64,000 bases of DNA from the IMG/VR virus record IMGVR_UViG_3300037400_003374, positions 9,664 through 73,663 of that record, one strand, 5' to 3'. Within the stretch, counting starts at the first letter, position 1; each line of letters opens with the position of its first letter. Made by a program: the position numbers and the translations under genes. Of this stretch, positions 26,447 through 48,189 are shown one piece after another. Below the pieces are notes generated by a model. It made no database searches, had not been told where the DNA came from, and saw only the letters and a list, made by a program, of their open reading frames with translations. This stretch comes from a virus (Duplodnaviria; Caudoviricetes).

Positions 26447-26498
26447 ATTATGCAAATATAAAAGCATAGGCTTTTCGCCTATGCTCTCTTTGTCGTTC

Positions 26499-26684
26499 TT
26501 ACTCTCCGCATGCCATGTATCTGAATGCTTTTCCTTCCCATACTTCGATGCTTTCTTCATCGGTGAACTTGTCTCCGCCCTCTTCGGTGTAAAGCTTTTC
26601 AGCCGTTGCAATTGCACTCTCTAATGTGGTTGCGGTTGCGATGGTCTCTACTCCGGTCCAGTCTCTCATGATGATTGTAAACAT
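26499..26684 (-). CDS. Small acidic protein, family A copy 1
   Basis: Own promoter, RBS and terminator; paralog of 27263-27448 and 30012-30197. Confidence 0.8.
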   Translation of the reverse strand: MFTIIMRDWTGVETIATATTLESAIATAEKLYTEEGGDKFTDEESIEVWEGKAFRYMACGE

Positions 26685-26817
26685 TGTTTTGTCCTTCTTT
26701 CTTTTTTTTTGTTCCCTCTCAGGAACTGTCTATATTATAGCGCCGATTTGATTTTTTGTCAAGCACTTTTTTTAAAAAAGGGAAGGAAATTTTTTTCCTT
26801 CCCTTTTTCCTTCTTTC

Positions 26818-27132
26818 TTATAAGTCTTCACCCATTTCAGATTCATAGCAATCAGAGCAGATATATTTGCCTTTTTCAAAGTCACAGCACCAAGTTTCAA
26901 GAGAGAAATAATCAACCTTTTCCTTACATGCTTCACAGCAGAATACCTTTTCACCGCGGATTGCAGAGCCATGGAACAGTTCCTTGTAACGTTCAGTCTT
27001 TACTTCATCGTCATAGGACCGACGTACCATTTTTCCGTTGCGCTTGTAGTAGTGCGGGACACGTACAGTTTTCTTTTCTTCTTCATGCATCTCAGCAACC
27101 AGACCCAAAACCTTTTTTACTTCAGCTTTCAT
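26818..27132 (-). CDS. Zn-finger protein, family Z copy 1
   Basis: CCEAC...CSDC; start corrected to MKAEVKK after the promoter and RBS; paralog of 28978-29292. Confidence 0.8.
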   Translation of the reverse strand: MKAEVKKVLGLVAEMHEEEKKTVRVPHYYKRNGKMVRRSYDDEVKTERYKELFHGSAIRGEKVFCCEACKEKVDYFSLETWCCDFEKGKYICSDCYESEMGEDL

Positions 27133-27262
27133 TTTCTTGTCCTTCTTTCTTTTATTTAGTTCCCTCAGGAACTGTCTAGAGTATATCATATGTTGTCCGG
27201 CTTGTCAAGCACTTTTTTTCATTAGAGAGGGAAATTTTTTTCCCTCTCTTTTTACCTATCTT

Positions 27263-27448
27263 TCACTCTCCGCAAGCCATGTATCTGAATACTGTCCCTT
27301 CCCATACTTCGATGCTTTCTTCATCCGTGAATTCGTCGCCGTTCATCTCTTTGTAAAGTCTCTCAGCAATCTCAATGGCCTTCTCTAAGGTATCAGCGGT
27401 CTCCATGGTGTCAAATTCTTCCCAAGTGTTGAATCCAATCTCAAACAT
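27263..27448 (-). CDS. Small acidic protein, family A copy 2
   Basis: Shares TLEKAI.IAE.LY....GD.FT.EESIEVW....Y.ACGE with the other copies. Confidence 0.8.
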   Translation of the reverse strand: MFEIGFNTWEEFDTMETADTLEKAIEIAERLYKEMNGDEFTDEESIEVWEGTVFRYMACGE

Positions 27449-27582
27449 TTTCTTGTCCCTCTTTCTATTTATTGTTCCCTCAGGAACTGTCTATATTATA
27501 ATACCAAGTGTTATTCTTGTCAAGCACTTTTTTCAATTTTTTAAAAAAAGTTTTCAGCTTTACCGGAACGGCGTAAGTAACG

Positions 27583-27816
27583 AGTTAGTTATGACTAACT
27601 AACTATTATGTCATTATAATGGTAGTGCACGGGTTAGTTATGACTATATCACTATTATTAAAGTATCACTGTAGCGCACAAGTTAGTTATGACTATATCA
27701 CTATTATAGTTTAACGTTAAACCACAAGTTAGTTATAACTATATCACTATTCTAGTTTAACGTTACACTATAGCGGTTAGTTATGACTATATCACTAATG
27801 CGGTTTAACGTTAAAC
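27583..27816. repeat. Second repeat cluster: GTTAGTTATGACTA(TATCAC) variants interleaved with GTTTAACGTTAAAC palindromes
   Basis: Five GTTAGTTAT(G/A)ACTA units and three (near-)perfect 14-bp palindromes. Confidence 0.9.
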
Positions 27817-27895
27817 TTGTCTATGCCGTTCCGGAGAGACAGAGATAAAAGTATAACTATTATACAGGACAAAAGAAAAGGCATAGCCTTTTGGG

Positions 27896-28345
27896 CTATG
27901 CTCTTGCAAGTTTCTGCAGGAATTTCTCATTTGTTATCTCGCAGTTATCAAACTTGATTTGTACGTTTTCTCCGTTTATCTGTATGTCTCCAGTGACGTT
28001 AAACGGTTCACTATTCTTTTTCCATGTCCCTTGTGTAAACCGTTCAACTATGATTCGTTCAAAGTTATCACCTTTGTTATAAGTGCTATCTGCTTTCAAG
28101 TCTTGTTCGTGTCCGCACATTGTAGCCAGCTTTAACAGTTCTGCTTTCTGAGCTTTGTTCAACTTAATGCGAACCTTTGCAAATCCTCCGCGCTTGCTTG
28201 ATGCATGGTCAAGACTTGTATACTGCTTTAATTCTTCAAAGGTGAGCGTTACGTAATACAGAATACCTTTTACTGCAAACCCAAGTATGTAAAGATGGGA
28301 AGCACTAAGGAGATTGTAAAGAGTCAGCATAGTTTCAAGTGTCAT
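27896..28345 (-). CDS. PD-(D/E)XK-like nuclease-fold protein, copy 1 (ends in TAG)
   Basis: Paralog of 32756-33199; FE...GD.....VQIK motif; the fold assignment is tentative. Confidence 0.75.
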   Translation of the reverse strand: MTLETMLTLYNLLSASHLYILGFAVKGILYYVTLTFEELKQYTSLDHASSKRGGFAKVRIKLNKAQKAELLKLATMCGHEQDLKADSTYNKGDNFERIIVERFTQGTWKKNSEPFNVTGDIQINGENVQIKFDNCEITNEKFLQKLARA

Positions 28346-28977
28346 ATTGCAATCCTTCTTTCTTAATGTTTGTCAGTTCCATCTGACAGTTACTATTATA
28401 CTCATGCCGGCAGAAATGTCAAGCACTTTTTTTAGAAAAAATGTAAAAAGTTTTCGGGAAGAATCCGCCACCATTTATATACATATATATAACTATTCAG
28501 AAAGATATATACATATACATAACTATTCAGATATGTATAAGTATATAATCATTATGACGTTATACATATTCCGGTACATACCAGTTAGTTATGACTAACT
28601 AACTCATAGTTCTCTCCCATTGTGTATATAGTAGCATATAATTATCATTGTGTCAAGCACTTTTTTCAAAGTCAACGGAACGGAAAAACGATAAGTTGCC
28701 ATAGAGATAAAATAGTTATATATGTATATATAACTATTTTGGCAATGACGAGTTTATAATAGTTAGGCGCGCCTAACTGGCGCGCCTTTTCCACCATGCA
28801 CATTATAGCAAAGTATTCGCAACTTGTCAAGTAAAATTTTTAAAAATGGCGATCCGGGAAAACGTTATAACATTATAACAATAGAGTATAACAGAAAAGG
28901 CATGGAATCAATTTCCATGCCTTTTCTCTTGTTCTTGTCCGGCCTTTTGGCAGGAAGGAAAGGATTATTTCCTTTCC

Positions 28978-29292
28978 TTATAAATCCTCACCCATGTCCG
29001 ATTCATAGCAATCAGCACACAAGTACTTTCCATGTTCAAAGTCACAGCACCATGATTCCAAGGAGAAATAATCAACCTTTTCCTTGCACTCAGCACAGCA
29101 GAATACTTTCTGAGACCGGATAGCAGAACCGAAGAACAATTCCTTGTAGCGGTCAGTATAAACAGTATCATCATAGGAACGGCGTACCATTTTTCCACCG
29201 CGTTTGAAGTAATGAGGAACATGTACAGTTTTCTTTTCTTCTTCTTTCATCTCATCAACCAAACCCATTACCATTTTTACTTCAGTAGTCAT
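28978..29292 (-). CDS. Zn-finger protein, family Z copy 2
   Basis: Close paralog of 26818-27132. Confidence 0.8.
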   Translation of the reverse strand: MTTEVKMVMGLVDEMKEEEKKTVHVPHYFKRGGKMVRRSYDDTVYTDRYKELFFGSAIRSQKVFCCAECKEKVDYFSLESWCCDFEHGKYLCADCYESDMGEDL

Positions 29293-29364
29293 TTTCAAAT
29301 CCTTCTTTCTTTTAATTCGTTCCCTCAGGAACTGTCTGTATTGTATCATGTTTCTCCGGCATTG

Positions 29365-29664
29365 TCAAGCATTTTTTTCAAGAAATTTTTTATATCTTTC
29401 CGTGTCCTTCCAAACATCCATAGTTCTATAAGTACGCGGTTCGATACTGAAGTTTTTTAAGCCGCCGTCCCATGCAAGAGCAAACACATTAAGAATGCAG
29501 ATAGGAACAATCAGAAGGACATAAACAGGTACTTTCATTTTAGAAATAACATTTACGCTATATTCTTTTTCTTCAATATAGTGATTGCATGCCAGCTTTT
29601 CAAGCATATGCATTTTCTTAAAACCAAGCAAGATAGCAAGTTCGGAATAACTAATCTTTTTCAT
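29365..29664 (-). CDS. Hypothetical protein with one hydrophobic segment
   Basis: 99-aa ORF with promoter and GAAAGG RBS. Confidence 0.65.
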   Translation of the reverse strand: MKKISYSELAILLGFKKMHMLEKLACNHYIEEKEYSVNVISKMKVPVYVLLIVPICILNVFALAWDGGLKNFSIEPRTYRTMDVWKDTERYKKFLEKNA

Positions 29665-30011
29665 AACAATTACCTTTCTGGTTTTTTAGGACTTTTCCTT
29701 GTCCTTTTGACGGTTAGAGTATAGCATAGTTTTCTGAGCGTGTCAAGCACTTTTTTTAAAAATCTTTTTTCTCACATATGTATATAGCCATAACTAACCG
29801 CTTGCCGGCGAACTAGTTAGTTTTAGCTAACCGGTGGGCCTTTTCCACCATGCATATTATAGCAAAGTCTTTTCAAACTGTCAATAGGTTTTTTTCGCAA
29901 GAGTGCCGGATCAGCATTGACACCTATTGAAATATAATGATGATACTTTTATAACTATTATGCAAAAGAAAAAGCATGAACTTTTGTTCATGCTTTCTTT
30001 ATCCGATTTAG

Positions 30012-30197
30012 TTACTCTCCGCAAGCGGTATATACTCTTTCACTCTTGCACCATACTTCAATACTTTCTTCACTTGTGAACTTGTCCCCGTCTTCTTCTT
30101 TGTAAAGCTTTTCAGCAATTGCAATGGCCTTTTCAAGTGTCTCAGCGGTCTCCCAAGCATCGAATCCTTCCCAAGTCTGTAAACCGATTGTAAACAT
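30012..30197 (-). CDS. Small acidic protein, family A copy 3
   Basis: Paralogy; own promoter and terminator. Confidence 0.8.
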   Translation of the reverse strand: MFTIGLQTWEGFDAWETAETLEKAIAIAEKLYKEEDGDKFTSEESIEVWCKSERVYTACGE

Positions 30198-30348
30198 TTT
30201 TCATACTTCCTTTCTTTTAATGTTCCCTCAGGAACTGTCTATATTATACAGCCGGCTATAAATTTTGTCAAGCACTTTTTTTATTTTTTTAAAAAACTTT
30301 TTTCCGGCATGGAAGGGAAAGGATTGTTTCCTTTCCCTTCCATATCTG

Positions 30349-30543
30349 TTACTGCTTTCCATATTCCTTGATGAGATACTCCAGATTGTAAGTCATGTCA
30401 TGCAGTTTAGTGTTAGCGTAATAATCATCAAGTATGGAAGTGTCAGGATATGCTTTGTCAGCGAGAGAATGAATAACTTCAATGGCCTTCTGAAGGATAG
30501 CAATCTCATTTTCTGAGAGAGTGTAGCTAAAACGGTTAGTCAT
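30349..30543 (-). CDS. Hypothetical protein, paralog of 36700-36897
   Basis: Shared EIA.L..AI.VIH.LADK.YPD.S.LD..YAN.K.HDMTYNL.YL. Confidence 0.8.
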   Translation of the reverse strand: MTNRFSYTLSENEIAILQKAIEVIHSLADKAYPDTSILDDYYANTKLHDMTYNLEYLIKEYGKQ

Positions 30544-30762
30544 GGTGTAAACCCCTTTCCTTTAGTTGATGATTGAAGTATAATGCATTTTGATGTTTTT
30601 GTCAAGCACTTTTTTTAACTTTTTTCAAAAATTTTTTCTTTCATCAATTGTTATAACGTTATAACTTTTTTCCGGCATGCCGGCATGGTATACATGGCGA
30701 TCCGTTAACAGAGATATAAAAAAGGGCTTTACGCCCTTTAATAGTGCCGTTTTCATTATAGT

Positions 30763-30924
30763 TTAAATTGAGTCACACAATGGCCAACCAAACATTTCCG
30801 ACTCTTTGCACCATTCTTCAAAGGAAAGATAATGTGCATAATCTCCATGCTCATAAATGATATCACTCACATAAGACTCATAACAATCACGTTTTTGTTC
30901 GTCGGTTAATTCTTTCCAAGTCAT
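30763..30924 (-). CDS. Small hypothetical protein
   Basis: MTWKELTDEQ... after promoter and RBS; terminator at about 30717-30740. Confidence 0.65.
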   Translation of the reverse strand: MTWKELTDEQKRDCYESYVSDIIYEHGDYAHYLSFEEWCKESEMFGWPLCDSI

Positions 30925-30992
30925 TTTTTTCTTTCCCCTTTCTTTTGGGCTTTTCGTCCACAACTATATGATAATGCTTTTTTCTGTATTTG

Positions 30993-31217
30993 TCAAGTGA
31001 CTTTTTCAATCACAAGCCAGCTATCATCAATCTCATATGCATTTTCTGTTTTTGCTTGTATAGCTTTTCCCCATCCCATTCTAATACAATGATCTGCAGA
31101 TGAGTATGTATCAAACGTTCCATTCCATTCACCAAACTTAGTTGAAATATCGGGAGTGTCACAAAAGGCAATTTTGTAAAGTTCTGCATCCTTGTGTTTC
31201 TTGCTAAAAAGTTTCAT
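30993..31217 (-). CDS. Small hypothetical protein
   Basis: 74-aa ORF with own promoter and AGGA RBS. Confidence 0.65.
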   Translation of the reverse strand: MKLFSKKHKDAELYKIAFCDTPDISTKFGEWNGTFDTYSSADHCIRMGWGKAIQAKTENAYEIDDSWLVIEKVT

Positions 31218-31440
31218 AATACTTCAGTCCTTTCTTTGAAGTATCTATATGATAGCATAGGCGCGCGAAAATGTCAAGCGAAAATTTTTAAAAAATTTTT
31301 TTAAAAAAACTCTTGACAACTTGTATCAGATGAGTATAATATACATGACGGAACCGGAGAGAGGAGGGAGGAAACCGCCCAGTAGTTAGTTATGACTAAC
31401 TAACTAGCAACTATAAGAAAAAAGGCCTTCCGGCCTTTTT

Positions 31441-31611
31441 TCAATCCATCATGATAACTTTTCCGCTTTCATAAACAATGTATGATTCCTCATCCGTTGC
31501 AGTCTCATCAAAAGCTTCGCACCATGCAATCACTTCGCTAAGTGTCTCAAAAGTTACTTCTAAGTCAGTGGGTTTCATTCCTTCATAGTTGGTGTAAATC
31601 TCGTACTTCAT
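31441..31611 (-). CDS. Small acidic protein, distant family A member (56 aa; not in the ORF track)
   Basis: MKYEIYTNYEG...FETLSEVIAWCEAFDETATDEESYIVYE...; promoter, leader hairpin and bidirectional terminator 31418-31441. Confidence 0.7.
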   Translation of the reverse strand: MKYEIYTNYEGMKPTDLEVTFETLSEVIAWCEAFDETATDEESYIVYESGKVIMMD

Positions 31612-31804
31612 AATTCGTTGCCTTCTTTCTTTTAATCTGTTCCCTCAGGAACTGTCTATAGTATAATGCATAATAACCTTTTTGTCAAGTACTTTTTTTA
31701 AAAAAAAATAAAAAAAATTTTTTTCAAAAACCCCTTGACAAATATAAATAAATGACTATAATATAATTGACAGGCCGGAGAGGGGAGGGGGAGGTGGACC
31801 ATCG

Positions 31805-32620
31805 GTTAGTTATGACTAACTAACTAAAATTAGACACGACTAACTTTAGTTAGATAAAACTAACTAGAGTTAGTTATGACTAACTCAATAATAGTTAGTT
31901 GTAACTAACTGCCTCATCCACCGGTCCCGATCCGGTCCGTAAAGTCAAAGAAAGTCAAAGTCAAAGAAAGTCAAAATCAGGCGCGAGTTAGTTATGTCTA
32001 ACTATAGTTAGTCATGCCTAACTCAGGTGCCTTATCCGAACCGATCCGAAAAGTCAAAGAAAGTCAAAGTCAAAGACGAGTTAGTTATGACTAACTCAAT
32101 ATTAGTTAGTTATAGCTAATTATAGTTAGTTGCAACTAACTAGAGTTAGTTATGACTAAGTCACTATTAGTTAGTTGGCACTAACTAGAGTTAGTTATGA
32201 CTAACTAACGTTAGTTGTACCTAACTACAGTTAGTTGTGACTAACTATAGTTAGTCATGTCTAACACGAGTTAGTTATGACTAAGTCACTATTGGTTAGG
32301 TATAACTAACTAGAGTTAGCCGTGACTAACTGTAGTTAGTGGTGTCTAACTAAAGTTAGACAAGCCTAACTTTAGTTAGCTGAGACTAACAGAAGTTAGC
32401 TGGGACTAACGCTAGTTAGTCAAGACTAACTAAAGTTAGCTGCGTCTAACTGAAGTTAGATATAACTAACTAAAGTTAGCTGGGACTAACTGGAGTTAGC
32501 TGAGACTAACTCCGGTTAGCTGTAACTAACTAAAGTGAGCTGAATCTAACTGTAGTTAGTTGTAACTAACTTTAGTCAGCTGAACCTAACTCCGCCGGCG
32601 CTGGTTAGTTATGCCTAACT
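31805..32620. repeat. Central lattice of ~33 GTTAG-N6-CTAAC palindromes (20-bp period over about 32.29-32.59 kb) with two AAAGTCAAAG blocks
   Basis: Counted directly; sits where transcription switches from the minus to the plus strand. Confidence 0.95.
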
Positions 32621-32642
32621 ACCTGGGCCGATCGCCGGCGCC

Positions 32643-32687
32643 TGTGGATAACTCTGTGGATAATTTTGTGGATAAAATTGTGGATAA
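32643..32687 (-). promoter_or_regulatory. Four tandem perfect DnaA boxes (TTATCCACA), 12-bp period
   Basis: TGTGGATAA at 32643, 32655, 32667 and 32679. Confidence 0.85.
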
Positions 32688-32692
32688 GTGGG

Positions 32693-32721
32693 TTGACACA
32701 TTAGCGCCCCGGGTGTATACT
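32693..32721 (+). promoter_or_regulatory. sigma-A promoter (first of more than 25 similar early promoters in 26-49 kb)
   Basis: TTGACA-N17-TATACT. Confidence 0.85.
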
Positions 32722-32755
32722 TGACTCATCAAATGAAGGAAAGGAAGTCACGAAC

Positions 32756-33199
32756 ATGACCAAGGAAATGATGCAGGAACTTTACAACAAGGTATCGGGG
32801 GCTCACAAGTATGCTCTGGGCTTTATCTTCCAGCACAAGCTGTATGCCGTCAAGCTGAGCTTTGAGGGAATCAGTAAGTATTTCAAGCTGGACCATGCAA
32901 GCTCTAAGAGGGGCGGATATGCAAAAATCCGTATTCGCCTGACCGCCGCGGACCGTGCTAAGCTGAGTGAAGTGGCGGAGCTGCTGGGAGCTGAAGAGCT
33001 GCTGACCAAGGACACCAAGTACAACAAGGGTGAGAACTTCGAACGGGAGCTGACAGAACGCTGGACCGGAGAAACCTGGGTAAAGGATAGTGTCCCCTTC
33101 TGGGTATGCGGTGATATCCGGGTAGACGGTGAAGAGATTCAGATCAAGCTGGACGGTGCGGAGCTGACCAACGAGAAGGTACTGGCAGGGCTGGCCTGA
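32756..33199 (+). CDS. PD-(D/E)XK-like nuclease-fold protein, copy 2
   Basis: LDHASSKRGG.AK.RI.L and NKGENFER...GDI...GEEIQIK.D are shared with 27896-28345. Confidence 0.8.
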   Translation: MTKEMMQELYNKVSGAHKYALGFIFQHKLYAVKLSFEGISKYFKLDHASSKRGGYAKIRIRLTAADRAKLSEVAELLGAEELLTKDTKYNKGENFERELTERWTGETWVKDSVPFWVCGDIRVDGEEIQIKLDGAELTNEKVLAGLA

Positions 33200-33370
33200 G
33201 GCCCTGCCGGATCGGCCCCGGCCGATCCTTTTCTATGCCGGCAAGCTGGGGCTGGAAAACGCGCCGGCGAGCTGGGCTTGCCGGCAAAAAATTTTTCGCT
33301 GGGGCGAAAAACCCCTTGACAAGCTGGCTGTAATACGCTATAATGTGTACATGAAAGAGAGGTGCTAAGT

Positions 33371-33565
33371 ATGGAGATTGTAAAGTTTGGACGGACTTGG
33401 GTAATAAATACTGTTGCTGACTATGAGCACGCCATGGAGGTACTGGACGGGAATGAGTTCTGCGCGGACATGTCGGACGACTGGGCACGCGCTGATAGGG
33501 AGAAAGCTGAGATAAGGCGGCAAAGGCGCGATGTCATAGCACAAGCTGGCAAGCTGAAGGCTTGA
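33371..33565 (+). CDS. Small hypothetical protein
   Basis: Promoter and GAGG RBS. Confidence 0.65.
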   Translation: MEIVKFGRTWVINTVADYEHAMEVLDGNEFCADMSDDWARADREKAEIRRQRRDVIAQAGKLKA

Positions 33566-33612
33566 CAAGCTCCAAAATTATGATATAATTAATAGTGAAA
33601 GGAGCTGATAGC

Positions 33613-34937: not shown

Positions 34938-34973
34938 CAAGCCCCTTGCAATCAAAGAAAGGAGCATTGAAGT

Positions 34974-40556: not shown

Positions 40557-40580
40557 ACCGCCTTCGGGCGGTTTTATTTT
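40557..40580 (+). terminator. Intrinsic terminator
   Basis: ACCGCC-TTCG-GGCGGT plus T-run. Confidence 0.85.
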
Positions 40581-40839: not shown

Positions 40840-41097
40840 ATGAGTAAAATTCTGGATGTAGAATGGCAGTCTTGGCATGAATTATCAGTGAATGTAGATG
40901 AAATTGTTGATGATTGTAAATATAGAATGGAAAAGTGGCATGTCCCTCTTGAAGAAGTAGTAGATATTGCAATTGAAGGTTATGTTTCTGGATTCGATGA
41001 TGCACTGTATTACAGTTGGAACGAGGATGCGCAGAAACAGGTAAGAGACGCCGTATTGCAGGCTTTCGGCGGTGTGCAGCTTAGCATGTTTGACTAA
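40840..41097 (+). CDS. Small acidic hypothetical protein
   Basis: Start corrected to MSKILDV; long structured leader at 40691-40820. Confidence 0.65.
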   Translation: MSKILDVEWQSWHELSVNVDEIVDDCKYRMEKWHVPLEEVVDIAIEGYVSGFDDALYYSWNEDAQKQVRDAVLQAFGGVQLSMFD

Positions 41098-41366
41098 GCT
41101 AACCGCCCGCCGGCATATTTCTGCCGGCGGGAGTTAGTTATAACTAAGTAATTAAAAAAAATTTTTTCCAAGTAGTTGACATTCAGTGAAAATTGAGTAT
41201 AATAGATACTGTCAGGAGGGAACAAGAGTCCCAATAAAAAAACTTTGAAAAAAAGTTTAAAAAAACTCTTGACAGACTTTCCAAAACCTGATATAATACA
41301 GATGTTCCCAAGGGAACGAACGAATGAGAAGGAAAACTCAGCTAAACCAGAAAGGAAGATACCTCT

Positions 41367-41699
41367 ATGAAAAAGTCTACTATGAATGCTATCCTGTCCC
41401 TCATCTCCACCATGGATTCTCCCGAAGCTGAAACTGTACGCAATGAGCTGACCGCTGAGCTGAACAGGGGAGCTGAAAAAGCTCAGGCAAATCGGGAGCT
41501 GTATGAGACCGCTTGGGATGCGGTTTATGGCGTGCTGGATGTCGAATATCCTGCTACTGTCGCTGAGATCTATGAAGCTGTAAAAGACTCTCTGCCCGCT
41601 GGTTTCACTAAGGCCAAGGTACAGTATGCGCTGGGACACTACTGGAACAAAGATGTCGTAAAGCATGAGGGCAAGGTTAACACCTACACTCGGGCTTAA
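41367..41699 (+). CDS. Coiled-coil + winged-HTH protein, family W copy 4
   Basis: Paralogy; terminator at about 41711-41733. Confidence 0.8.
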   Translation: MKKSTMNAILSLISTMDSPEAETVRNELTAELNRGAEKAQANRELYETAWDAVYGVLDVEYPATVAEIYEAVKDSLPAGFTKAKVQYALGHYWNKDVVKHEGKVNTYTRA

Positions 41700-41935
41700 T
41701 TTCAACCTCTTGCGCCCTTCGGGGCGCCTTTTTATGCGCGGAGTTAGCCACAACTAACTCTGCCGGCCCGCGGTTAGGCAAGTCTAACTTCAAAAATTTT
41801 TAAAAAAAAATGCTTGACAATTTCCAAAATTATGCTATAATAGACTCAAGAAGTTGAGGAACAGAAAAAAATTCCTCTTGACAACTTCTTAAAAACATGA
41901 TACAATTAGTTGAACTTAAGGAAAGGATTGATTTT

Positions 41936-42274
41936 ATGAATAAGTCTCAGCTTGAAACCATGTTGCGCAACGACTACCTCGACACCCTTCAGAAACTTCT
42001 TTCCGAAAAATATGACACCGATGTGTTGCCTGTTAGCGCCAACGAACTTGCTCTCCCTTGTGTTGACGCGGAGGGCAACGAAAAATGGATTGTGGTAAAG
42101 GTTTCTACCCCTCGTGGGACTCGTGATGGCAAGGGCGGTTATATCCCTTATGATGGGTATGCTCTTGCGGAAGAATACCAGATGGAGTGCGAAGACAAGG
42201 CACAGGAAAAGGCCGAAAAACAGGCCATGAAGGAAAAGGAAAAGGAAAGCAAGAAAAAGAAAAAGGCCGAATAA
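41936..42274 (+). CDS. Hypothetical protein with Lys/Glu-rich coiled-coil tail
   Basis: Resembles 45909-46307 and the N-terminal half of 49016-49507. Confidence 0.7.
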   Translation: MNKSQLETMLRNDYLDTLQKLLSEKYDTDVLPVSANELALPCVDAEGNEKWIVVKVSTPRGTRDGKGGYIPYDGYALAEEYQMECEDKAQEKAEKQAMKEKEKESKKKKKAE

Positions 42275-42338
42275 TTCGGCCTTGACTTTCTCTTCATTCT
42301 ATGCTATAATGGTCCACGTTGAAAGGAGCAATTTGATT

Positions 42339-43025
42339 ATGAAAGATTTGTACATGGTATTTGATACGGAAACTTGCAACACTCCCAAAATTGATGGGCA
42401 GCTTGATACCAGCGCGGGCCAGGTTTATGACTTTGGTTTTCAGATTGTAGACAATGAAGGGAATGTTTATGAGGAACATTCATACGTCAATGAAGATGTA
42501 TTCTTTGATCTTCCCGAAGCTATGCAAGAATCATTCTTTGCTGACAAAATCCCGCAGTACTTGGAAGGACTGCGCAACGGTTCCCATCAAATGGTTAACA
42601 CTTGGGATTTATACAGGATTGTCAGGAAAATGGTCGAGAAGTACGACATTAAAGCCTTCATTGCGCACAATGCGCGCTTTGACGTTGCAGTATTAAATGC
42701 AACACTGCGTTATCAAACTAAAAGCGTTCGGCGGTACTTCTTCCCTTATGGTATCCCCATTTGGGACACAATGAAGATGGCTAACGATACAATTTGTAAA
42801 CTGTCGTCATATAAACAGTTTTGTGAAGTCAATGGATATATGACCAAGCATAAAATTCCACAGGTGCGCAAAACAGCGGAAATTTTATGGCGCTTCCTTC
42901 AGAAAGATAATGACTTTGAAGAAAAGCATACGGGCCTTGAAGACGTAAAAATTGAGGCGCAGATTTTCGCGGAGTGCGTGCGGAGACATAAGAAAATGGA
43001 ACGCCTCGCAGACCTTGACAAATAA
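42339..43025 (+). CDS. DEDDh 3'-5' exonuclease, copy 1
   Basis: ExoI FDTET, ExoII AHNARFD, ExoIII HTGLED. Confidence 0.85.
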   Translation: MKDLYMVFDTETCNTPKIDGQLDTSAGQVYDFGFQIVDNEGNVYEEHSYVNEDVFFDLPEAMQESFFADKIPQYLEGLRNGSHQMVNTWDLYRIVRKMVEKYDIKAFIAHNARFDVAVLNATLRYQTKSVRRYFFPYGIPIWDTMKMANDTICKLSSYKQFCEVNGYMTKHKIPQVRKTAEILWRFLQKDNDFEEKHTGLEDVKIEAQIFAECVRRHKKMERLADLDK

Positions 43026-43116
43026 GGCCCCGCGGGGCCGGCAAAAATTTTTTTCAAAAACCTATTGACATTTTTTCCAAGTTATACTATAATTAACAAT
43101 GTCAGGAGGGATATGA

Positions 43117-43275
43117 ATGAAACGAGCACTGTATAAGCGTTATGATGAACTCTCTGCTTGGGATTTAAACAAAGGTTGCAGACATATTGTAAATCAGCAT
43201 ACTCCCGCAAGGCGCAGACTGAAAAAGGTATTGCGCAAGCAGGCACGTGCACGACTGAAAGGAGCGATATTATGA
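43117..43275 (+). CDS. 52-aa basic peptide (not in the ORF track)
   Basis: GGAGG RBS; stop overlaps the next start. Confidence 0.5.
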   Translation: MKRALYKRYDELSAWDLNKGCRHIVNQHTPARRRLKKVLRKQARARLKGAIL

Positions 43276-43577
43276 GGGATGCTATCATGGGAACTTATGA
43301 CAGGGAGTATACTTACTGCCCTGTAAACGCTTACGGTAATTGCCCTTATTGTGATAAAAAGTGTATCTGTCACGTTGAAGACCCTTTGAAAGATTGCGAT
43401 GATTGGGGCATGTTCTGGGGCAGTTGGGATGAATGGAAAAGGATTGACTGGGTAACCGAGGACAATTCCGCACAGGACGAGATTGAATGGGCCGAAGAAA
43501 ACTACGGCTATGAAGAACCCGATAATATAGAAATGGGTTTTGACCCCTACGCAGGTTGTTATACAGATGACTGTTGA
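43272..43577 (+). CDS. Acidic Cys-rich hypothetical protein
   Basis: Start corrected to MRDAIMG (AGGAG RBS); CPYCDKKCIC cluster; ends MGFDPYAGCYTDDC. Confidence 0.7.
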   Translation: MRDAIMGTYDREYTYCPVNAYGNCPYCDKKCICHVEDPLKDCDDWGMFWGSWDEWKRIDWVTEDNSAQDEIEWAEENYGYEEPDNIEMGFDPYAGCYTDDC

Positions 43578-43706
43578 GCGGGTTAGCTTCGGCTAACCCT
43601 GCCGGCCAAAAATTTTTTTCGGAAACCTCTTGACAAGGCCGAAAAGTATGATATAATATACAGGAAAGTTGAAGGAAAACAACTCAAACCAGAAAGGTAT
43701 TTAAAA

Positions 43707-44372
43707 ATGAATTTCCTTGTACTTGATGGTGAGACTTGCAACACTCCCAAAATTGATGGCCAGTTAGATGTCAAAAATGGTCAGGTTTATGACCTTGGTG
43801 GAATGGTCATTGATGAGTATGGACAGGAAAAGATGCGGTTTAGCGTAGTAAATGAAGATGTATTCTTCAGAATGCCCTATCAGATGAAAGAAGCGTATTA
43901 CAGCGAAAAAATCCCGCAGTACATTAAAGACATTAACAGCGGGAAACGCAAGGTAGTAAATACTTGGCAGATGTGGAAAATGGTACAGAACATTTGCAAA
44001 GAATACAAAGTGCAGGCAATTGTTGCACATAATGCATACTTTGATATTCAGACATTAAATGCTACTATGCGCTATCAGACTAAATCAGCAAAGCGTTATT
44101 TCCTTCCCTATAAAATGAACGTCATTGACAGCTTAAAAGTTGCACGTAAAGTATTTAGCAATGATATTGATTACATTCAGTTCTGTAAGGAAAATGGCTA
44201 TATGACCAATACCAAAACCCCTCGCCCTAGACTTACCGCCGAAGTATTATGGCGCTATATCAGCAATGACAATGATTTCATTGAAAGTCATACAGGATTT
44301 GAAGATGTGGAAATTGAAAGCAAAATTTTTTCAAAATGTCTTGACAAAATCCGCAAACATGATATAATGTAA
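43707..44372 (+). CDS. DEDDh 3'-5' exonuclease, copy 2
   Basis: LDGET / AHNAYFD / HTGFED; shares ETCNTPKIDGQLD with copy 1. Confidence 0.85.
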   Translation: MNFLVLDGETCNTPKIDGQLDVKNGQVYDLGGMVIDEYGQEKMRFSVVNEDVFFRMPYQMKEAYYSEKIPQYIKDINSGKRKVVNTWQMWKMVQNICKEYKVQAIVAHNAYFDIQTLNATMRYQTKSAKRYFLPYKMNVIDSLKVARKVFSNDIDYIQFCKENGYMTNTKTPRPRLTAEVLWRYISNDNDFIESHTGFEDVEIESKIFSKCLDKIRKHDIM

Positions 44373-44398
44373 TCATCAACCAGAAAGGAATTGATAAT

Positions 44399-44536
44399 AT
44401 GAAAGTGTACATCAAGAATGTTGCTCAGGAACAGACAGTACGTGAACTTCCCTTTACTCATGCCCTTTGGCTTCGGTGGAAAGTCTTCACCATGTACGCC
44501 AAAAAGGGTAGGCCCATTGTCAGATTTTTAATCTGA
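44399..44536 (+). CDS. 45-aa peptide (not in the ORF track)
   Basis: Promoter and GAAAGGA RBS. Confidence 0.5.
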   Translation: MKVYIKNVAQEQTVRELPFTHALWLRWKVFTMYAKKGRPIVRFLI

Positions 44537-44583
44537 CCTTGGGCGGCCCTTCCATCAGAATTTAATAAAAGGAGAAATGAAAT

Positions 44584-44826
44584 ATGGATACTAACATGAC
44601 TATCGCCAATATGCTTTATGAAGCTAACAAGATGCCCTACGATGACGTGACATTACTGATTAAAAAGTTGCGGGCAGTCCAAGCACGAAAGGCATTACAG
44701 CGCCAGTTTCATGAGCGCATGAATGACTTGATTCAGGAAGCACGGGAACAGGGTTTTGAGTTTGTAGATCATACTTGCGGATACCTTTGGCGCGAAGACG
44801 AATTCACGGTATTTGATAACGAATGA
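44584..44826 (+). CDS. Small hypothetical protein
   Basis: AGGAG RBS. Confidence 0.65.
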   Translation: MDTNMTIANMLYEANKMPYDDVTLLIKKLRAVQARKALQRQFHERMNDLIQEAREQGFEFVDHTCGYLWREDEFTVFDNE

Positions 44827-44877
44827 TGGGAGAAATCCCATCATTCGGGAGCCCGCCGGCACGCTAGGCCCACTTTG

Positions 44878-45383
44878 TCAAGAGTGGGCGTTGCAAGCGT
44901 AGTCAATAATTACGGGATGCCCTTCTTTCCAGCCATAATTCTGATTGTGTACGTCATAAATATGTTCCATAACCCAATCGCATTCATCGCCTACCAAATA
45001 CTCATAAACGTCATACTGATATTTACCAATTCCAGGAATTCTAGGCATGATGCAGAAGGAATGGCCCATATATTCAACCATGGTGGGTTTTGCTAACAGA
45101 TGAGCAAAACCCTCTTTTTCTGCCAAAGCATACAACTTAACTTCATCAGCACAGGAACCAAAGTCATGCACATTACGATAAGAACCAAAATCATATTTGA
45201 TAACATAGTCAGAAGTAATAAAGCACACACGAGTCAGGCATGTGTAAACACAACATGACGCTGATGGTCATAGTTAAAATGACGCACTGCCTTTTCAAAC
45301 TGATGCCAGCTATCACAATTGGCGATATAGTCATAGAACTGATGCAGGAACTTCTCAGCGCGAACTTCATAACTAGTCTTCAT
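44878..45383 (-). pseudogene. Frameshifted paralog of the 37038 kinase-like gene
   Basis: MKTSYEVRAEKF... reads into TGA near 45235. One base is missing at CAT-GCC-TGA (expected CAT-GGC-CTG, H-G-L-T-R). The downstream frame carries YVIK, DVHNQN and DYA. Confidence 0.75.
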
Positions 45384-45649
45384 ACTTCATTCCTCCCTTT
45401 CATGAGTAGAGTATAGCATACTATTAAAATCCTGTCAAGCACTTTTTGAAAAAAATTTTCGGCGCGCCGGCGCGGTTAGATGCGTCTAACTGTTTGACAA
45501 TTTTTAAATTTTAGAGTATAATATATATGAAAGTTGAGGGAAGAAATTCAAAAAAATGAAAATTTCCTCTTGACAAACTTTCAGACCCATGCTATAATAG
45601 ACCCATCAAGTGAAGGAAAACACTTAAAAACCAGAAAGGAAAATACCTC

Positions 45650-45820
45650 ATGCGTTACTATGTTACATTCATCCTTTGCAAGAATGGTGAAATTCTCAGA
45701 CTTTGGAACAGTTCAGACCGCTTTGCAGAACGAGTAAAAGCAATGGAGATGGCACAGACTCTTGTGAGGAATATCCAAGATAGTGGATATAGCATTTATT
45801 ATAAAATTAAGGAAATATAA
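45650..45820 (+). CDS. 56-aa hypothetical protein (not in the ORF track)
   Basis: Promoter and shared leader motif. Confidence 0.55.
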   Translation: MRYYVTFILCKNGEILRLWNSSDRFAERVKAMEMAQTLVRNIQDSGYSIYYKIKEI

Positions 45821-45908
45821 AAATTCTTCTTGACAAGCTTCCCGATTCATGCTATAATCAATACATCAAGTGAAGGAAAACACTTCAAACCAGAAAGGAT
45901 ATACCCTT

Positions 45909-46307
45909 ATGGCAAAAATTTCTAAGCCTGTTGTCGATGCTACTCTTCGTCTCGATGCATTTCAGTTCGCTTTTCCCGAATATTTTGACATTGACAATGC
46001 GGATGTTTCCGCAGACAAGGTAATTCGTTTCGATAAGGTAAATGATCGTCAGTTCGGCCTTATCATGAAGGACTTAAACGGAAACGAGCGTTACATCCGT
46101 ATCGGGGCGATTGTTGCAGAAGAACGTGAGGACATGACTGCACAGGAATTGATGCAGAAGGAAATTGATGACTATAACGCAAAAAAGGCCGATAAGGCCG
46201 AAAAGGCCAAAGCCAAGGCAGTGAAAATTGCCAAGGACAAGGCAAAGCGTGAACAGGCCAAAGCAGAGGACAAGGACGATGAAAATCAGTCCTTGCCCAT
46301 GAAGTGA
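45909..46307 (+). CDS. Hypothetical protein with Lys/Ala-rich tail
   Basis: Promoter and shared leader motif. Confidence 0.7.
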   Translation: MAKISKPVVDATLRLDAFQFAFPEYFDIDNADVSADKVIRFDKVNDRQFGLIMKDLNGNERYIRIGAIVAEEREDMTAQELMQKEIDDYNAKKADKAEKAKAKAVKIAKDKAKREQAKAEDKDDENQSLPMK

Positions 46308-46332
46308 CTATGTAAGGAAGGGGATATCAAAT

Positions 46333-46590
46333 ATGAGTAAAGTCGTGTATGTCTTATCCTATCAGGGTGAACCTGACCATGTTTATACCTCTCTTGAACC
46401 TTTGATTAAAATGTGCTACAAGTACATGAATGAACACCGCAGTGCCGAAGAAAAAATGTTCAACTACTGGTTAGAGGATAGATTCTATACAGAAGACACA
46501 GCAGAACAGGCTTGGAATGACTACATTGATTGGATTTTTGACTATGGTAAATGGGGCGATTACAGTTATCTTGAAGTACTGTTAGATTAA
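46333..46590 (+). CDS. Small hypothetical protein
   Basis: RBS and ORF. Confidence 0.65.
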   Translation: MSKVVYVLSYQGEPDHVYTSLEPLIKMCYKYMNEHRSAEEKMFNYWLEDRFYTEDTAEQAWNDYIDWIFDYGKWGDYSYLEVLLD

Positions 46591-46702
46591 TGCCAAGGGA
46601 GTTAGTTTAGGCTAACTCCCGCCGGCGCGAAAAAATTTTTGAAAACCGCTTGACATTTCCTTCAAAGTATACTATAATACTCTTGTCGAAAGGAAAGGAG
46701 CG

Positions 46703-47143
46703 ATGTTCATGACACAGGTTCAAGCAATTCGTCAGTTTGCTTCTTACGTTGCAAACACTAAAGCAGTAATTGCACGCACTCGGGAAGAATGGAGTATCAC
46801 CCTTGACTATCCTTATCCCTACTTGACTTTACCTAAAGACTTGATGGAAAATTCAGAAGGCGATAAAGCCTTTAGAAAAGACTTTGTTGCAAGGTGTCCC
46901 ATGGGTAGAGGTTTTGCAAACGTTACTTTATCTGTTTTACATGAAATCGGCCACTTCTTTACTAAAGAAATTTTCGACTCACAGGACATGGACGAATATG
47001 CAAAAGTAACCGAATATGAAGAATATTTTGCACTCCCTTGTGAAAAGGTAGCAACAGATTGGGCTATCAATTGGCTTCAGAACAAAGAACACCGTAAAGT
47101 AGCAAAAGCATTTGAAAAATCATTCTTTATTGGGAGGAACTAA
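46703..47143 (+). CDS. HEXXH zinc-metallopeptidase-like protein, copy 2
   Basis: VLHEIGHF plus CEKVATDWA. Confidence 0.7.
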   Translation: MFMTQVQAIRQFASYVANTKAVIARTREEWSITLDYPYPYLTLPKDLMENSEGDKAFRKDFVARCPMGRGFANVTLSVLHEIGHFFTKEIFDSQDMDEYAKVTEYEEYFALPCEKVATDWAINWLQNKEHRKVAKAFEKSFFIGRN

Positions 47144-47144
47144 T

Positions 47145-47360
47145 ATGTGCCAAATCAAAGAAACAGCGCTTTGCAAGTTTTGTCCGAACATTGATAAATG
47201 CCGAGAAGAACGTGACCAAATGTTATTCAAACTGGCATTTGATTGGTGGAATTTTGATAGAGTGCCTCCCGAATATTTAAGGACCGAAGAAGTAATACAG
47301 GCCCTTTTGGATTATATCCATGATAATCCCGAACGTTTTCGCGGCCAGCGCCCACAATGA
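47145..47360 (+). CDS. Small hypothetical protein
   Basis: GGAGG RBS; CxxC...C. Confidence 0.6.
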   Translation: MCQIKETALCKFCPNIDKCREERDQMLFKLAFDWWNFDRVPPEYLRTEEVIQALLDYIHDNPERFRGQRPQ

Positions 47361-47471
47361 TCGGGCGCGCCGGCAGGGTTAGATTTAACTAACTTGAAAA
47401 AATTTTCCCAAACCTCTTGACAGCTTTCCTGACTTATAGTATAATCAAGATGTTGAAAGGAGATGGACACC

Positions 47472-47615
47472 ATGAAAAAGACCAAAACCAAAGCGAAAAC
47501 TTGGACTGAAGTATTCCAGTCCGAAAGGAAAACTTGGGGCAACGTAAACCCAGTGACCAAGGTTATTCCAGACAAGAGATTTAAGAAGCCGAAGTACAAG
47601 AACTATGATGATTAA
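47472..47615 (+). CDS. 47-aa basic peptide (not in the ORF track)
   Basis: Promoter and AGGAG RBS. Confidence 0.55.
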   Translation: MKKTKTKAKTWTEVFQSERKTWGNVNPVTKVIPDKRFKKPKYKNYDD

Positions 47616-47628
47616 AGGAGAGATATGT

Positions 47629-47832
47629 ATGGTAACTCGTAGCTATTATGTTCCCCGCAATCAGATTGGGCGCTATGTAATGAATTTGGTAGTAGATAAT
47701 GTCGGTTGCAGTGTCGCAGATATTACCCCTAACGTCTCAGTTGAAGTTATCCGCTTTACTATCACTTGTCGTGATAGGGATATTCCCACTGTTGAACAGA
47801 TTTTAAAAAGTTACAATATGTTAGGAGATTGA
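47629..47832 (+). CDS. Small hypothetical protein
   Basis: AGGAG RBS. Confidence 0.6.
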   Translation: MVTRSYYVPRNQIGRYVMNLVVDNVGCSVADITPNVSVEVIRFTITCRDRDIPTVEQILKSYNMLGD

Positions 47833-47917
47833 CAATATGCATTTAACACCGCAAGATATCCAATACATTCAGGCCTTCCAGGCCTTTACGTAGGAAACAC
47901 TGGCAGCGGTCCGCCGC

Positions 47918-48067
47918 GCCGGCAAGTGTCACAACTTTACAGAAGGATTTTTTATTCGGTTACTGGACCTATTGGACAAGTTTAAAACAGAGTTCTGGAA
48001 CGTGCCGGCATAATTTGCCGGCACGCTTTTTCTGCCGGCAGGCTTGCCGGCGACTTTTTCTGCCGGC
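47918..48067. repeat. Cluster of six GCCGGC hexamers
   Basis: At 47918, 48004, 48017, 48034, 48046 and 48062. Confidence 0.85.
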
Positions 48068-48189
48068 GCGGTTAGTTATAACTAACTCACTATTATACTT
48101 TTGTAACTATTATGTCCTCGTCACTGTTACATGTTCATCACTGTCCCCTATATATTGGGGCGCGGCCACTATATCTTGTACCCCGCCGC

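Follow-up and report, generated by a model that had tools for sequence, protein, structure and literature searches.

The element AGTTAG-N6-CTAACT, repeated throughout the early region of this gut phage, is a putative site for a dimeric winged-helix metal repressor of the DtxR type, most probably the host's own, an assignment to which we give somewhat better than even chances. The phage copies most likely dock or soak up this metal-sensing host repressor rather than serve as recombination sites, because the same DNA site precedes iron and zinc uptake genes in gut bacteria.

Distribution of the palindrome, the arrays and the junctions

A motif scan of the window (the whole stretch of 64,000 nucleotides analyzed) gave 57 exact matches to GTTAG-N6-CTAAC, where 0.05 were expected, and approximately 67 copies when near-copies are included. 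Allowing one mismatch yields 89 matches (1.9 expected), of which 10 are genuine near-copies and approximately 22 arise when the extended unit CTAACTAAC is read in a register shifted by +4. The palindrome first noticed in a sequence-only reading of this DNA is real and has more copies than were given there; all sites listed in that reading were placed correctly within 1-2 bp, the copy at 41133 having one mismatch. The copies occupy positions 25769-48086, and outside this span the window contains just one chance-level one-mismatch match (5664). Scanning the 73.6-kb contig, which represents about 41% of the genome according to CheckV, we found no GTTAG-N6-CTAAC outside the span and none in the initial 9.6 kb that precede the window; extended to the whole contig, the motif scan proposed in the sequence-only reading confines the palindrome to the early region of roughly 22 kb. 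The fixed arms of 5-6 bp stand one helical turn apart, and their sequence is invariant, with no compensatory changes, in the 57 copies and in unrelated genomes. The N6 spacer is presumably uncontacted by a binding protein. It does not vary freely as had been claimed: TTATGA is the core in 17 of the 57 copies, and most cores begin with T or C.

The cassette picture drawn previously was incomplete, as it left out one array (A) and did not mention the other (B). Array A (25769-26441) comprises 15 copies of the extended unit AGTTAGTTATGACTAACTAACTA, 12 exact and three near, separated by unique G+C-rich spacers with a period of mostly ~49 bp; on one side of it the leftward early arm ends, and on the other is a promoter-like site (25410-25381, minus strand). 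The latter precedes TAG-recoded structural genes. Array B (31805-32619) comprises 27 exact and six near copies (n = 33) and sits where the two early arms part, a point of divergence for both GC skew and transcription, with a perfect plus-strand promoter (31735-31762) directed into it. From 32170 to 32590 its period is strictly 20 bp, with fixed arms and variable N6. Inside array B there are three exact matches (31943, 31959 and 32052; 31943-32068, plus strand; none expected) to RGTCAAANANRGTCAAA, which we take to be the CtsR-operator consensus. Four perfect DnaA boxes TGTGGATAA with a 12-bp period (32643-32687, plus strand) end 5 bp short of the -35 element of the first rightward promoter (32693). 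Both CtsR-type and DnaA boxes were found again in relatives.

The right arm carries 29 perfect (12/12) TTGACA-N16/17-TATAAT promoters on the plus strand and the left arm approximately 16 promoters, perfect or 11/12, on the minus strand; no cassette shares its consensus promoter or its terminator with another. GCCGGC occurs 39 times in the window (7.4 expected), with 37 copies inside 28406-48067. Reading through 35600-41950 upheld the junction order proposed previously, namely terminator, AGTTAG-N6-CTAACT, C(C/G)GCCGGC, A/T tract, promoter, leader hairpin and small gene. The order is not general, as the palindrome is present at only ~10 of ~37 right-arm promoters and accompanies only about a quarter of the promoters. 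It lies either upstream of the UP element (centre at -47 to -78) or at +25, and not over the core promoter.

In the simplest junctions a site is followed by GCCGGC, as at 36333-36357 (between terminator 36298-36317 and promoter 36382), 38491-38515 (terminator 38456-38476, promoter 38537), 43582-43606 (promoter 43630) and 46601-46626 (promoter 46650). GCCGGC comes first at 45466-45490, with only 19 bp to the -35 element at 45494, and at 47369-47393, before promoter 47417. Composite junctions consist of site, GCCGGC and site at 40589-40632 (terminator 40556-40573, promoter 40656) and 41743-41788 (terminator 41712-41727, promoter 41814), and of site, two GCCGGC copies and site at 39755-39814, followed by promoter 39844. 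At 41106-41148, a GCCGGC-stem terminator precedes the one-mismatch site (41133) and promoter 41176; at 48001-48086, a cluster of GCCGGC-stem hairpins precedes the last site (48071), and here the motif-bearing region ends on the right. The left-arm sites reported previously are present. Two sites on this arm are not upstream of a promoter but inside small transcription units, at about +25: 28762-28777 (core GCGCGC; minus-strand promoter 28830-28802) and 29816-29831 (minus-strand promoter 29884-29856), the latter followed by GCCGGC (29804-29809). The remaining left-arm copies are an exact site (27584-27599) with five degenerate units TGATATAGTCATAACTAAC that keep one arm only (27584-27860 together), a lone site at 28584-28599 and another (31385-31400) within a short plus-strand unit (promoter 31313-31340, terminator ~31417-31442).

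The site in other phages and in bacteria

The tandem pattern (20 specified bases) was found in 52 stretches of unrelated viral contigs, the phages ranging from 11 to 169 kb. A complete 15-kb phi29-like podovirus carries three sites within its inverted terminal repeat, at bp 41-96, and in other motif-bearing phages sites are found in non-coding hubs together with other repeats. In a complete 169-kb relative (G013), all 22 sites fall in one 22-kb early region as single sites, without a large array, and keep the order of terminator, site and promoter; in another relative (G027), all 21 lie within 20 kb. Gene order and arm assignment of cassettes vary among relatives, in agreement with the cassette shuffling suggested previously. 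It probably proceeds via recombination between the junction modules, since these repeats of ~100 bp provide homology for ordinary recombination.

Bacteria of many phyla share the pattern, with at least 120 stretches that contain it, of which approximately 10-12 were annotated as loci. At most annotated loci the site is immediately upstream of metal-uptake genes, for example feoAB or zinT-znuA; these promoters, from bacteria of several phyla, have the dyad in the 20-bp tandem form that is seen on the phage. It stands next to feoA-feoB in Faecalitalea, Christensenellales and Collinsella; in Christensenellales also at zinT-znuA-znuC and at a zinT adjoining sufBD; and in Ruminobacter at an NRPS. 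One Christensenellales genome contains 17 sites (one in the control), 15 of them in a 48-kb island with ABC transporters and a family-5 solute-binding protein. Collinsella has seven sites (none in the control), three of which (two exact, one with one mismatch) separate a gene of the DtxR family (PF01325 plus PF02742) from a feoA-feoA-feoB operon that diverges from it. Judged by this placement, the dyad in bacteria is a candidate promoter-proximal operator.

Candidate binders and functions of the sites

Of the two functions offered in the sequence-only reading, an operator for one phage regulator that switches off the early promoters and an integron-like recombination site, the first stands in kind: fixed arms, helical-turn spacing, the 20-bp phase and the apparent operator use in bacteria all point to a protein operator. 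That its protein is one phage regulator fits poorly with a site common to unrelated phages and bacterial metal-uptake promoters, and switching off promoters fits less well too, with sites at about a quarter of them. As the phage sites are clear of core promoters, simple repression is unlikely.

If the binder is the host repressor, its metal-loaded dimers would, at infection, occupy the single sites just past the terminators of ~10 early cassettes and fill arrays A and B at the borders of the early arms. Phasing by 20 bp would place successive dimers on one helix face, as in bacterial two-site operators, and thus permit cooperative, high-capacity binding. The palindrome is also one part of a repeated junction module of terminator, site, GCCGGC, UP tract and consensus promoter. 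We consider two outcomes likely, and they are compatible with each other. One is titration: with ~67 sites on each genome, and more of them as the genome replicates, the phage would deplete the repressor and release iron and zinc uptake in the host from repression. The CtsR-type and DnaA boxes of the hub would likewise deplete or recruit the host proteins that bind them. The other is insulation or read-out, in which bound dimers would act as roadblocks between strong early units and, at array A, against late genes. Confinement to the early region and one site per cassette look more like regulation than like a sponge alone.

The main rival to the host repressor is a winged-helix dimer encoded by the phage itself, either family W or a MarR/DtxR-like protein of ~120 aa encoded outside the contig, which we regard as a serious but distinctly less probable binder. 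Made early or in the middle period and sharing the half-site preference of the host repressor, it would sit on junction sites and arrays and jointly silence, insulate or compact the whole early region. In three related genomes the sites are restricted to the early region, which agrees with such a protein, as does the spacing of about one site per cassette at a conserved distance past the terminator. The four family W paralogs (35967-36287, 38121-38450, 40019-40345 and 41367-41699, plus strand, spanning 35967-41699) are the only recognizable DNA-binding candidates in the early region, and their predicted fold is a confident winged helix (pLDDT 93). Yet this fold matches only generically (best E 0.04), its recognition helix is unlike that of DtxR or MepR, and the family occurs in just 10 of 49 motif-bearing viral records, which makes family W, named as a candidate in the sequence-only reading, less fitting as the binder. 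Small winged-helix proteins, their helices of MarR_2 or Fe_dep_repress-like type, are encoded by relatives: a 119-aa MarR_2-type protein in the 169-kb relative and proteins of ~120 aa beside a 317-aa gene in six other motif-bearing phages. The contig yielded no homolog of the DtxR-like or MarR-like kind; because it covers ~41% of the genome, a phage-encoded binder may sit in the remaining part. Against it, a PF01325-like HTH is found in just seven of the 49 records and is absent (at E<=0.01) from seven of nine viral records at least 90% complete, and complete phages, including the 15-kb phi29-like one, have sites with neither protein. Moreover, unrelated phages would have had to gain independently the specificity of a bacterial metal repressor.

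It is rather improbable that the arrays are an iteron- or centromere-like platform for a replication origin or for partition, with which the scattered sites pair as dispersed centromere sites of the KorB/ParB or N15 type do. The strict phase of array B, its position beside the DnaA boxes at the divergence point, the sites at the replication terminus of the phi29-like phage and the non-coding hubs of other phages would all suit such a platform. On the other hand, no initiator, ParA/ParM/TubZ or adaptor gene was recognized adjoining the arrays, ORF 32756 matches no family and has a homolog in only one of five records, the 169-kb relative lacks a large array, and bacteria appear to use the same site as an operator at metal-gene promoters. 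A platform can be reconciled with host-repressor docking if the repressor acts as an architectural protein.

We give very little credence to an integron-like cassette system, even though inverted arms flank a 6-bp spacer, sites mark cassette borders and relatives differ in cassette order and arm. Neither the contig nor three complete motif-bearing phages (G013, G039 and G025) yielded a tyrosine recombinase, which extends the absence of an integrase noted earlier for the window; every cassette has its own promoter and terminator; the element is a 16-bp perfect dyad and not an attC-type structure; arrays of 15 and 33 recombination sites would be self-destructive; ordinary homologous recombination accounts for the shuffling; and the same site is a likely operator at bacterial metal genes. 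Equally hard to credit are RNA hairpins, such as a multi-hairpin decoy RNA transcribed from promoter 31735 through array B: the perfect plus-strand promoters 31313 and 31735 are directed at sites and each unit could fold into a stem of 6 bp closed by a loop of 6 nt, but these stems are weak and A/U-rich, the arms show no compensatory changes, the bacterial copies resemble promoter operators, and most junction sites are untranscribed DNA because they are located after terminators and before promoters.

Comparison with known systems

Phased dyad or iteron arrays that load many copies of one protein are known as decoys, such as datA for DnaA, and as centromeres, such as the 20-bp repeats of pSK41 parC and the KorB sites of RK2; the latter are also dispersed near promoters over the replicon, as here. 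In contrast to these systems, no partner gene was found beside the phage arrays and the site is common to chromosomal metal regulons. In T4-type PeSL cassettes, small early genes are likewise flanked by repeated promoter/stem-loop modules, and their order is shuffled by recombination between modules. To our knowledge, no factor-binding dyad is known from PeSL modules, whereas the module described here adds the palindrome and GCCGGC. Host repressors control phage-borne promoters in corynephage beta, where DtxR binds the tox operator, and in GIL01 and CTXphi, where the repressor is host LexA; beta uses exactly the DtxR family. These temperate phages have one or few operators at one promoter, unlike the region-wide set and arrays of this large, virulent-type phage.

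The virulent Bacillus phages phi29 and Nf carry boxes for host Spo0A near early promoters and terminal replication origins; in phi29 the boxes overlap promoters and origins, and the lytic cycle is suppressed at the onset of sporulation (PMC2731898). Similarly, the phi29-like contig found here has its sites at the terminus. In our phage, the factor would be a metal repressor and the sites are far more numerous and clear of promoters. As a metal-loaded repressor binds in replete cells, the starvation-sensing logic of phi29 and Spo0A is not directly transferable.

MepR of the MarR family recognizes GTTAG-N4-CTAAC, with two abutting sites in the mepA operator, and its regulon in Staphylococcus serves multidrug efflux and has no metal-gene context (PMC3936728). 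MepR reads the identical GTTAG half-site as a winged-helix dimer, though the spacer is 4 bp instead of 6 bp; the half-site alone therefore cannot name the protein family. In the 19-bp DtxR/IdeR consensus TTAGGTTAGCCTAACCTAA (PMC7762939), the TTAG-N6-CTAA dyad occurs twice with an offset of 5 bp, and in the commonest phage unit TTAGTTATGACTAACTAA it occurs twice with an offset of 4 bp. The phage dyads differ from the iron box in being single or in 20-bp tandem instead of two overlapped by 5 bp, and in lying outside core promoters in ~67 copies, with arrays of up to 33. In keeping with DtxR and short DtxR-family metal repressors, the bacterial copies precede feoAB, zinT-znuA and metallophore-type transporters, and those of Collinsella adjoin a gene of this very family.

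Palindrome arrays and junction sites in the early region

The window forms the final 64 kb of a single 73,663-bp viral contig with a completeness of ~41% (CheckV). It contains 57 exact matches to GTTAG-N6-CTAAC versus 0.05 expected, and 89 matches versus 1.9 expected when one mismatch is allowed; about 22 of the latter are shadows of the extended unit in the +4 register and 10 are true near-copies, giving ~67 sites per genome (exact copies plus true near-copies). All motif counts are those of pattern tools. Palindrome copies are confined to 25769-48086, the sole exception being a chance-level near-match at 5664, and the pattern scan found none in the first 9.6 kb of the genome; the structural genes are not equally rich. 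The enrichment in early DNA described in the sequence-only reading is thereby confirmed and extended. That reading had placed its single junction sites correctly to within 1-2 bp in every case, but it had missed two large arrays.

Array A (25769-26441) is made of 15 copies of a 22-bp extended unit with unique spacers between them, and it is flanked by the end of the left arm on one side and by a promoter-like site ahead of the structural genes on the other. Array B (31805-32619) holds 27 exact and 6 near copies, runs in a strict 20-bp register from 32170, and sits exactly between the two divergent early arms. Within array B we found three exact matches (0 expected), at 31943-31975 and 32052-32068, to the operator consensus of CtsR, the heat-shock/Clp repressor of Firmicutes. 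Boxes of this type are present again in the related loci L004, L015, L018 and L027. The hexamer GCCGGC occurs 39 times versus 7.4 expected, and 37 of the 39 copies lie in the early region (28406-48067), where the enrichment is ~15-fold. It is frequently part of a terminator stem (41106-41131, 48001-48052) or is found on its own, as CGCCGGCG, adjoining the palindrome, a pairing seen solely in this phage lineage (loci L015 and L027).

The early region is a divergent gene block. Leftward transcription would start from about 16 sigma-A-type promoters, perfect or 11/12, between 31688 and 26762 (- strand), and rightward transcription from 29 perfect TTGACA-N16/17-TATAAT promoters between 33316 and 47445 (+ strand). 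On the right arm, read over 35600-41950, an intrinsic terminator is followed by AGTTAG-N6-CTAACT, C(C/G)GCCGGC, an A/T tract, a consensus promoter, a leader hairpin and a small gene. This order had been proposed as the grammar of the cassette junctions; it holds on the right arm, but not as a general rule, since the palindrome is present at ~10 junctions only. The centre of the right-arm palindromes lies at -47 to -78 from inferred start sites, upstream of the UP tract, whereas on the left arm two palindromes lie at about +25 of small transcription units. Two + strand promoters are aimed into palindromes, one of them into array B. The phage sites do not overlap the -35/-10 elements or the start site in the way that would occlude RNA polymerase. 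Promoter-driven stretches free of ORFs (35737-35880, 37662-37815 and 40346-40580) had no ARAGORN or Rfam match and look like small structured RNAs.

Two related phages, the complete genome G013 (169,459 bp, with terminal repeats) and the 65-kb fragment G027, encode proteins with 59% and 61% identity, respectively, to a 418-aa protein of the window (the G027 match has 4 in-frame TAG codons) and belong to the lineage of the window phage. The 22 sites of G013 all fall in one 22-kb region, and the 21 sites of G027 all fall within 20 kb. The junction place of the site is conserved: G013 shares the divergent arms, has ~30 perfect promoters and keeps the order terminator-site-promoter, with 13-23 bp from hairpin to site start (~15 bp at window junctions with a visible terminator) and 62-73 bp from site to -35 (39-49 bp in the window). 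No large array was found in G013; therefore, the arrays are an expansion in the window phage.

The structural (late) genes at 3-25354 (- strand) are TAG-recoded. With TAG read as sense, one frame (3-10880) of 3626 aa with 118 TAG codons extends past the window, and several other late ORFs have 5-8 TAG codons each. No suppressor tRNA was found in the window, where both ARAGORN and Rfam were without matches, and the capsid-region homolog of G013 has no TAG codons. A gene for a Thg1-like tRNA-His guanylyltransferase is located at 61403-62182 (+ strand; PF04446, E 6e-29).

The dyad in other phages and in bacterial metal-uptake loci

Public collections were scanned with the tandem query GTTAG-N6-CTAAC-N4-GTTAG-N6-CTAAC, which has 20 specified bases. 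The tandem form was found in 52 IMG/VR stretches, on contigs of 11 to 169 kb, many with spacings that are multiples of 20 bp. Among the carriers is a phi29-like podovirus, complete at 15 kb, which encodes a type-B polymerase, a gp16 ATPase and a phi29 capsid protein. Three sites lie in its inverted terminal repeat, at bp 41-96, and its first protein (227 aa) has no homolog in the genome of the window phage. When 46 kb of the window was compared by megablast with 50,697 phage records, nothing matched. At least 120 stretches of the GTDB genome collection contain the tandem form, and carriers among the matches listed include Oscillospiraceae, Lachnospiraceae, Christensenellales, Erysipelotrichia, Coriobacteriia, Gastranaerophilales, Treponema, Succinivibrionaceae, Fibrobacter and freshwater Actinomycetota, among others. 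These stretches are mixed: some are phage-like contigs binned into MAGs (e.g. locus L102), others are true chromosomal promoters. Further operator-like palindromes occur near the arrays of other motif-bearing phage contigs (L009 3100-3200 and 4320-4620; L102 3620-3650), among them a CIRCE-like element (TTAGCACTT-N9/10-AAGTGTTA) and a TGTGCAA-TTGCACA repeat.

In annotated bacterial loci, feoA-feoB begins immediately at a two-site operator in Faecalitalea cylindroides, in Collinsella aerofaciens and in a Christensenellales genome, as do zinT-znuA-znuC, and zinT adjoining sufBD, in two Christensenellales genomes. Other two-site operators are found at an NRPS gene in Ruminobacter, a pyruvate formate-lyase gene in Roseburia, a radical-SAM gene in Succinivibrio and an ABC binding-protein operon in a Clostridium. 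The context is that of metal-uptake promoters (feoAB three times, zinT-znuA twice, suf, NRPS and ABC/SBP genes), and the phage dyad is identical with the operator found there. A 3.4-Mb Christensenellales genome has 17 sites versus 1 for a reversed-pattern control, and 15 of the 17 lie in one 48-kb island (G052:C1:1803534-1851081) that runs from feoAB through zinT-znuA, where sites precede feoAB, fused ABC transporters, a family-5 solute-binding protein, a TetR gene and zinT-znuA. Collinsella has 7 sites versus 0 in the control. Judged by these gene neighbourhoods, the bacterial sites appear to constitute a metal-uptake regulon, a compact one in the case of the Christensenellales island.

Short DtxR-family proteins are encoded in all five bacteria sampled. 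In Collinsella, the gene for a 134-aa protein that combines the two DtxR-family domains (PF01325 and PF02742) diverges from a second feoA-feoA-feoB operon, and the interval contains three sites (two exact, one with one mismatch); such linkage was seen in one of the five DtxR-gene neighbourhoods checked. The DtxR/IdeR consensus TTAGGTTAGCCTAACCTAA contains TTAG-N6-CTAA twice, offset by 5 bp (PMC7762939). All 57 phage sites fit this dyad of the 19-bp iron box, and the commonest phage unit, TTAGTTATGACTAACTAA, contains it twice, offset by 4 bp. The GTTAG half-site alone cannot fix the protein family, because MepR, a member of the MarR family, recognises it too, with a spacer of 4 bp (PMC3936728); what points to the DtxR family as the candidate regulator is the N6 spacing together with the neighbouring metal genes and the linked DtxR-family gene. 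Crp/Fnr, considered for the bacterial operator because of its 5-N6-5 architecture and a neighbouring gene in locus L112, was set aside on the feoA/DtxR linkage in Collinsella.

The sequence-only reading had suggested, as one option, an operator for a single phage regulator. A protein operator it appears to be, but not one private to such a regulator, as the same dyad occurs in unrelated phages and at bacterial metal promoters; what these comparisons support is the operator reading redirected to a putative host-type metal-repressor site. A binder encoded by the phage itself seems unlikely, although not strikingly so: 59% of the genome is missing from the contig, and the complete relative G013 has a 119-aa MarR_2-type gene. 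In the 73.6 kb available, there was no match to the DtxR HTH profile, the Collinsella repressor or the ~120-aa winged-helix proteins of other motif-bearing phages, and Pfam and PHROGs searches with 30 early ORFs detected no DNA-binding domain beyond weak HTH hints in family W. This family, proposed earlier as a candidate binder, has four clear paralogs in the window and more than 700 metagenome homologs, and is predicted with confidence to fold as a winged helix (pLDDT 93), with generic structural matches only (best E 0.04). Co-occurrence rules it out as the universal binder, as it is present in only 10 of 49 motif-bearing viral records. The other earlier candidate, ORF 32756 adjoining array B, was rejected as a general partner, having no family match and a homolog in one of five motif-bearing records. 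DtxR-HTH-like small proteins, which score equally as MarR_2, TrmB or HTH_27, are encoded in only 7 of the 49 records. Given that several complete phages have sites with neither family W nor a DtxR-HTH-like protein, and that no binder was matched in our contig, a host protein is the more economical prediction.

Five large phages (loci L174, L175, L176, L178 and L179, of viral records G021, G029, G024, G023 and G022) keep a two-gene module of a ~120-aa winged-helix protein and a ~317-aa protein ending in GGFNF, which may be a DNA-binding/replication pair; the corresponding G013 locus (L177) is without the 317-aa partner.

Other readings of the arrays and cassette shuffling

Array B could alternatively, though with low probability, be an iteron origin or a plasmid-type centromere. 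Its 20-bp period is indeed followed by four perfect DnaA boxes with a 12-bp period (32643-32687), which immediately precede the first promoter of the right arm; the relative L027 has a cluster of DnaA boxes as well (6504-6556). In this incomplete contig, the flanking ORFs have no family match in Pfam or PHROGs.

Cassette shuffling, suspected earlier from paralogs recurring on both arms, is borne out by the relatives. The early genes 37020 and 42282 are 5 kb apart in the window; their homologs lie side by side in G027, and G013 carries one on each arm. Gene order differs among relatives, and the shuffling is therefore real. The genes at 42282-43025 and 43707-44372 (+ strand) are paralogs; both match phrog_20187 and have weak matches to DNA polymerase exonuclease-subunit families. 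In G027, the 42282 query has a second, weaker match that lies ahead of both homologs and may be the counterpart of 43707, the paralog downstream of 42282.

An integron-like recombination site, the second option of the sequence-only reading, is not supported. The integrase not seen in the window is not found beyond it either: no tyrosine recombinase (PF00589) was detected in the contig or in the complete motif-bearing phages G013, G039 and G025, while the control genomes all matched. Every cassette has its own consensus promoter and terminator, unlike promoterless cassettes under a common Pc. The site is a 16-18 bp perfect dyad, found in tandem arrays that would be unstable for a recombination site, rather than a long imperfect attC palindrome with extrahelical bases, and it is shared with a bacterial operator. 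Homologous recombination between the repeated ~100-bp junction modules is sufficient to explain the shuffling. Such recombination has been proposed for the PeSL cassettes of T4, and the likeness extends to repeated promoter/stem-loop modules with variable gene order among relatives. A CRISPR-like reading of array A fails, since its repeat is the 22-bp operator unit, which is too short, with no cas genes and no Rfam match.

Proposed action of the sites and known analogues

With a host repressor as binder, metal-loaded DtxR-type dimers would occupy the phage sites. Direct repression is unlikely because the sites avoid core promoters, and we consider two other effects most likely. One is titration of the repressor: with about 67 sites on every genome copy, replication would release host iron and zinc uptake from repression, and boxes of the CtsR type and for DnaA would have a like effect on their own proteins. 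The other is that the sites would serve as roadblocks or insulators, both between very strong transcription units and at the late-gene border. Taken further, and tentatively, the non-coding DNA of the early region might itself be a host-takeover device: operator arrays, junction copies, CtsR-type and DnaA boxes would soak up host regulators during replication, switching on iron and zinc uptake and stress chaperones and perturbing replication control without any phage protein, a strategy that many unrelated phages of gut and rumen would have evolved by convergence. We see this as possible rather than probable.

If the binder is a host repressor, infection is linked directly to the iron and zinc homeostasis of gut and rumen anaerobes, and the phage provides a simple case in which the action of DNA as a regulator sponge or docking panel can be tested. 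The operator could also help to predict hosts, because phage and host must share repressor specificity. In Clostridia, Coriobacteriia, Erysipelotrichia and Succinivibrionaceae, the comparison further defines a putative metal regulon that had not been charted before, marked by tandem GTTAG-N6-CTAAC with a 20-bp period.

A search of the literature on decoy operator arrays in phages gave nothing pertinent; we found no paper on a host-type metal-repressor operator present in dozens of copies and in phased arrays throughout an early region, nor on one operator recurring in a 15-kb phi29-like podovirus and in myovirus-sized genomes of 120-170 kb. The use of host repressor sites by phages at single promoters is a known kind of regulation. 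The tox gene of corynephage beta is under host DtxR, an analogue for the protein family, and GIL01 has a single promoter under host LexA. The best documented analogue of host-factor sites on a virulent phage is phi29, with host Spo0A boxes near its early promoters and terminal origins (PMC2731898). What is unusual in the present case is the scale and the recurrence of one operator across unrelated phages.
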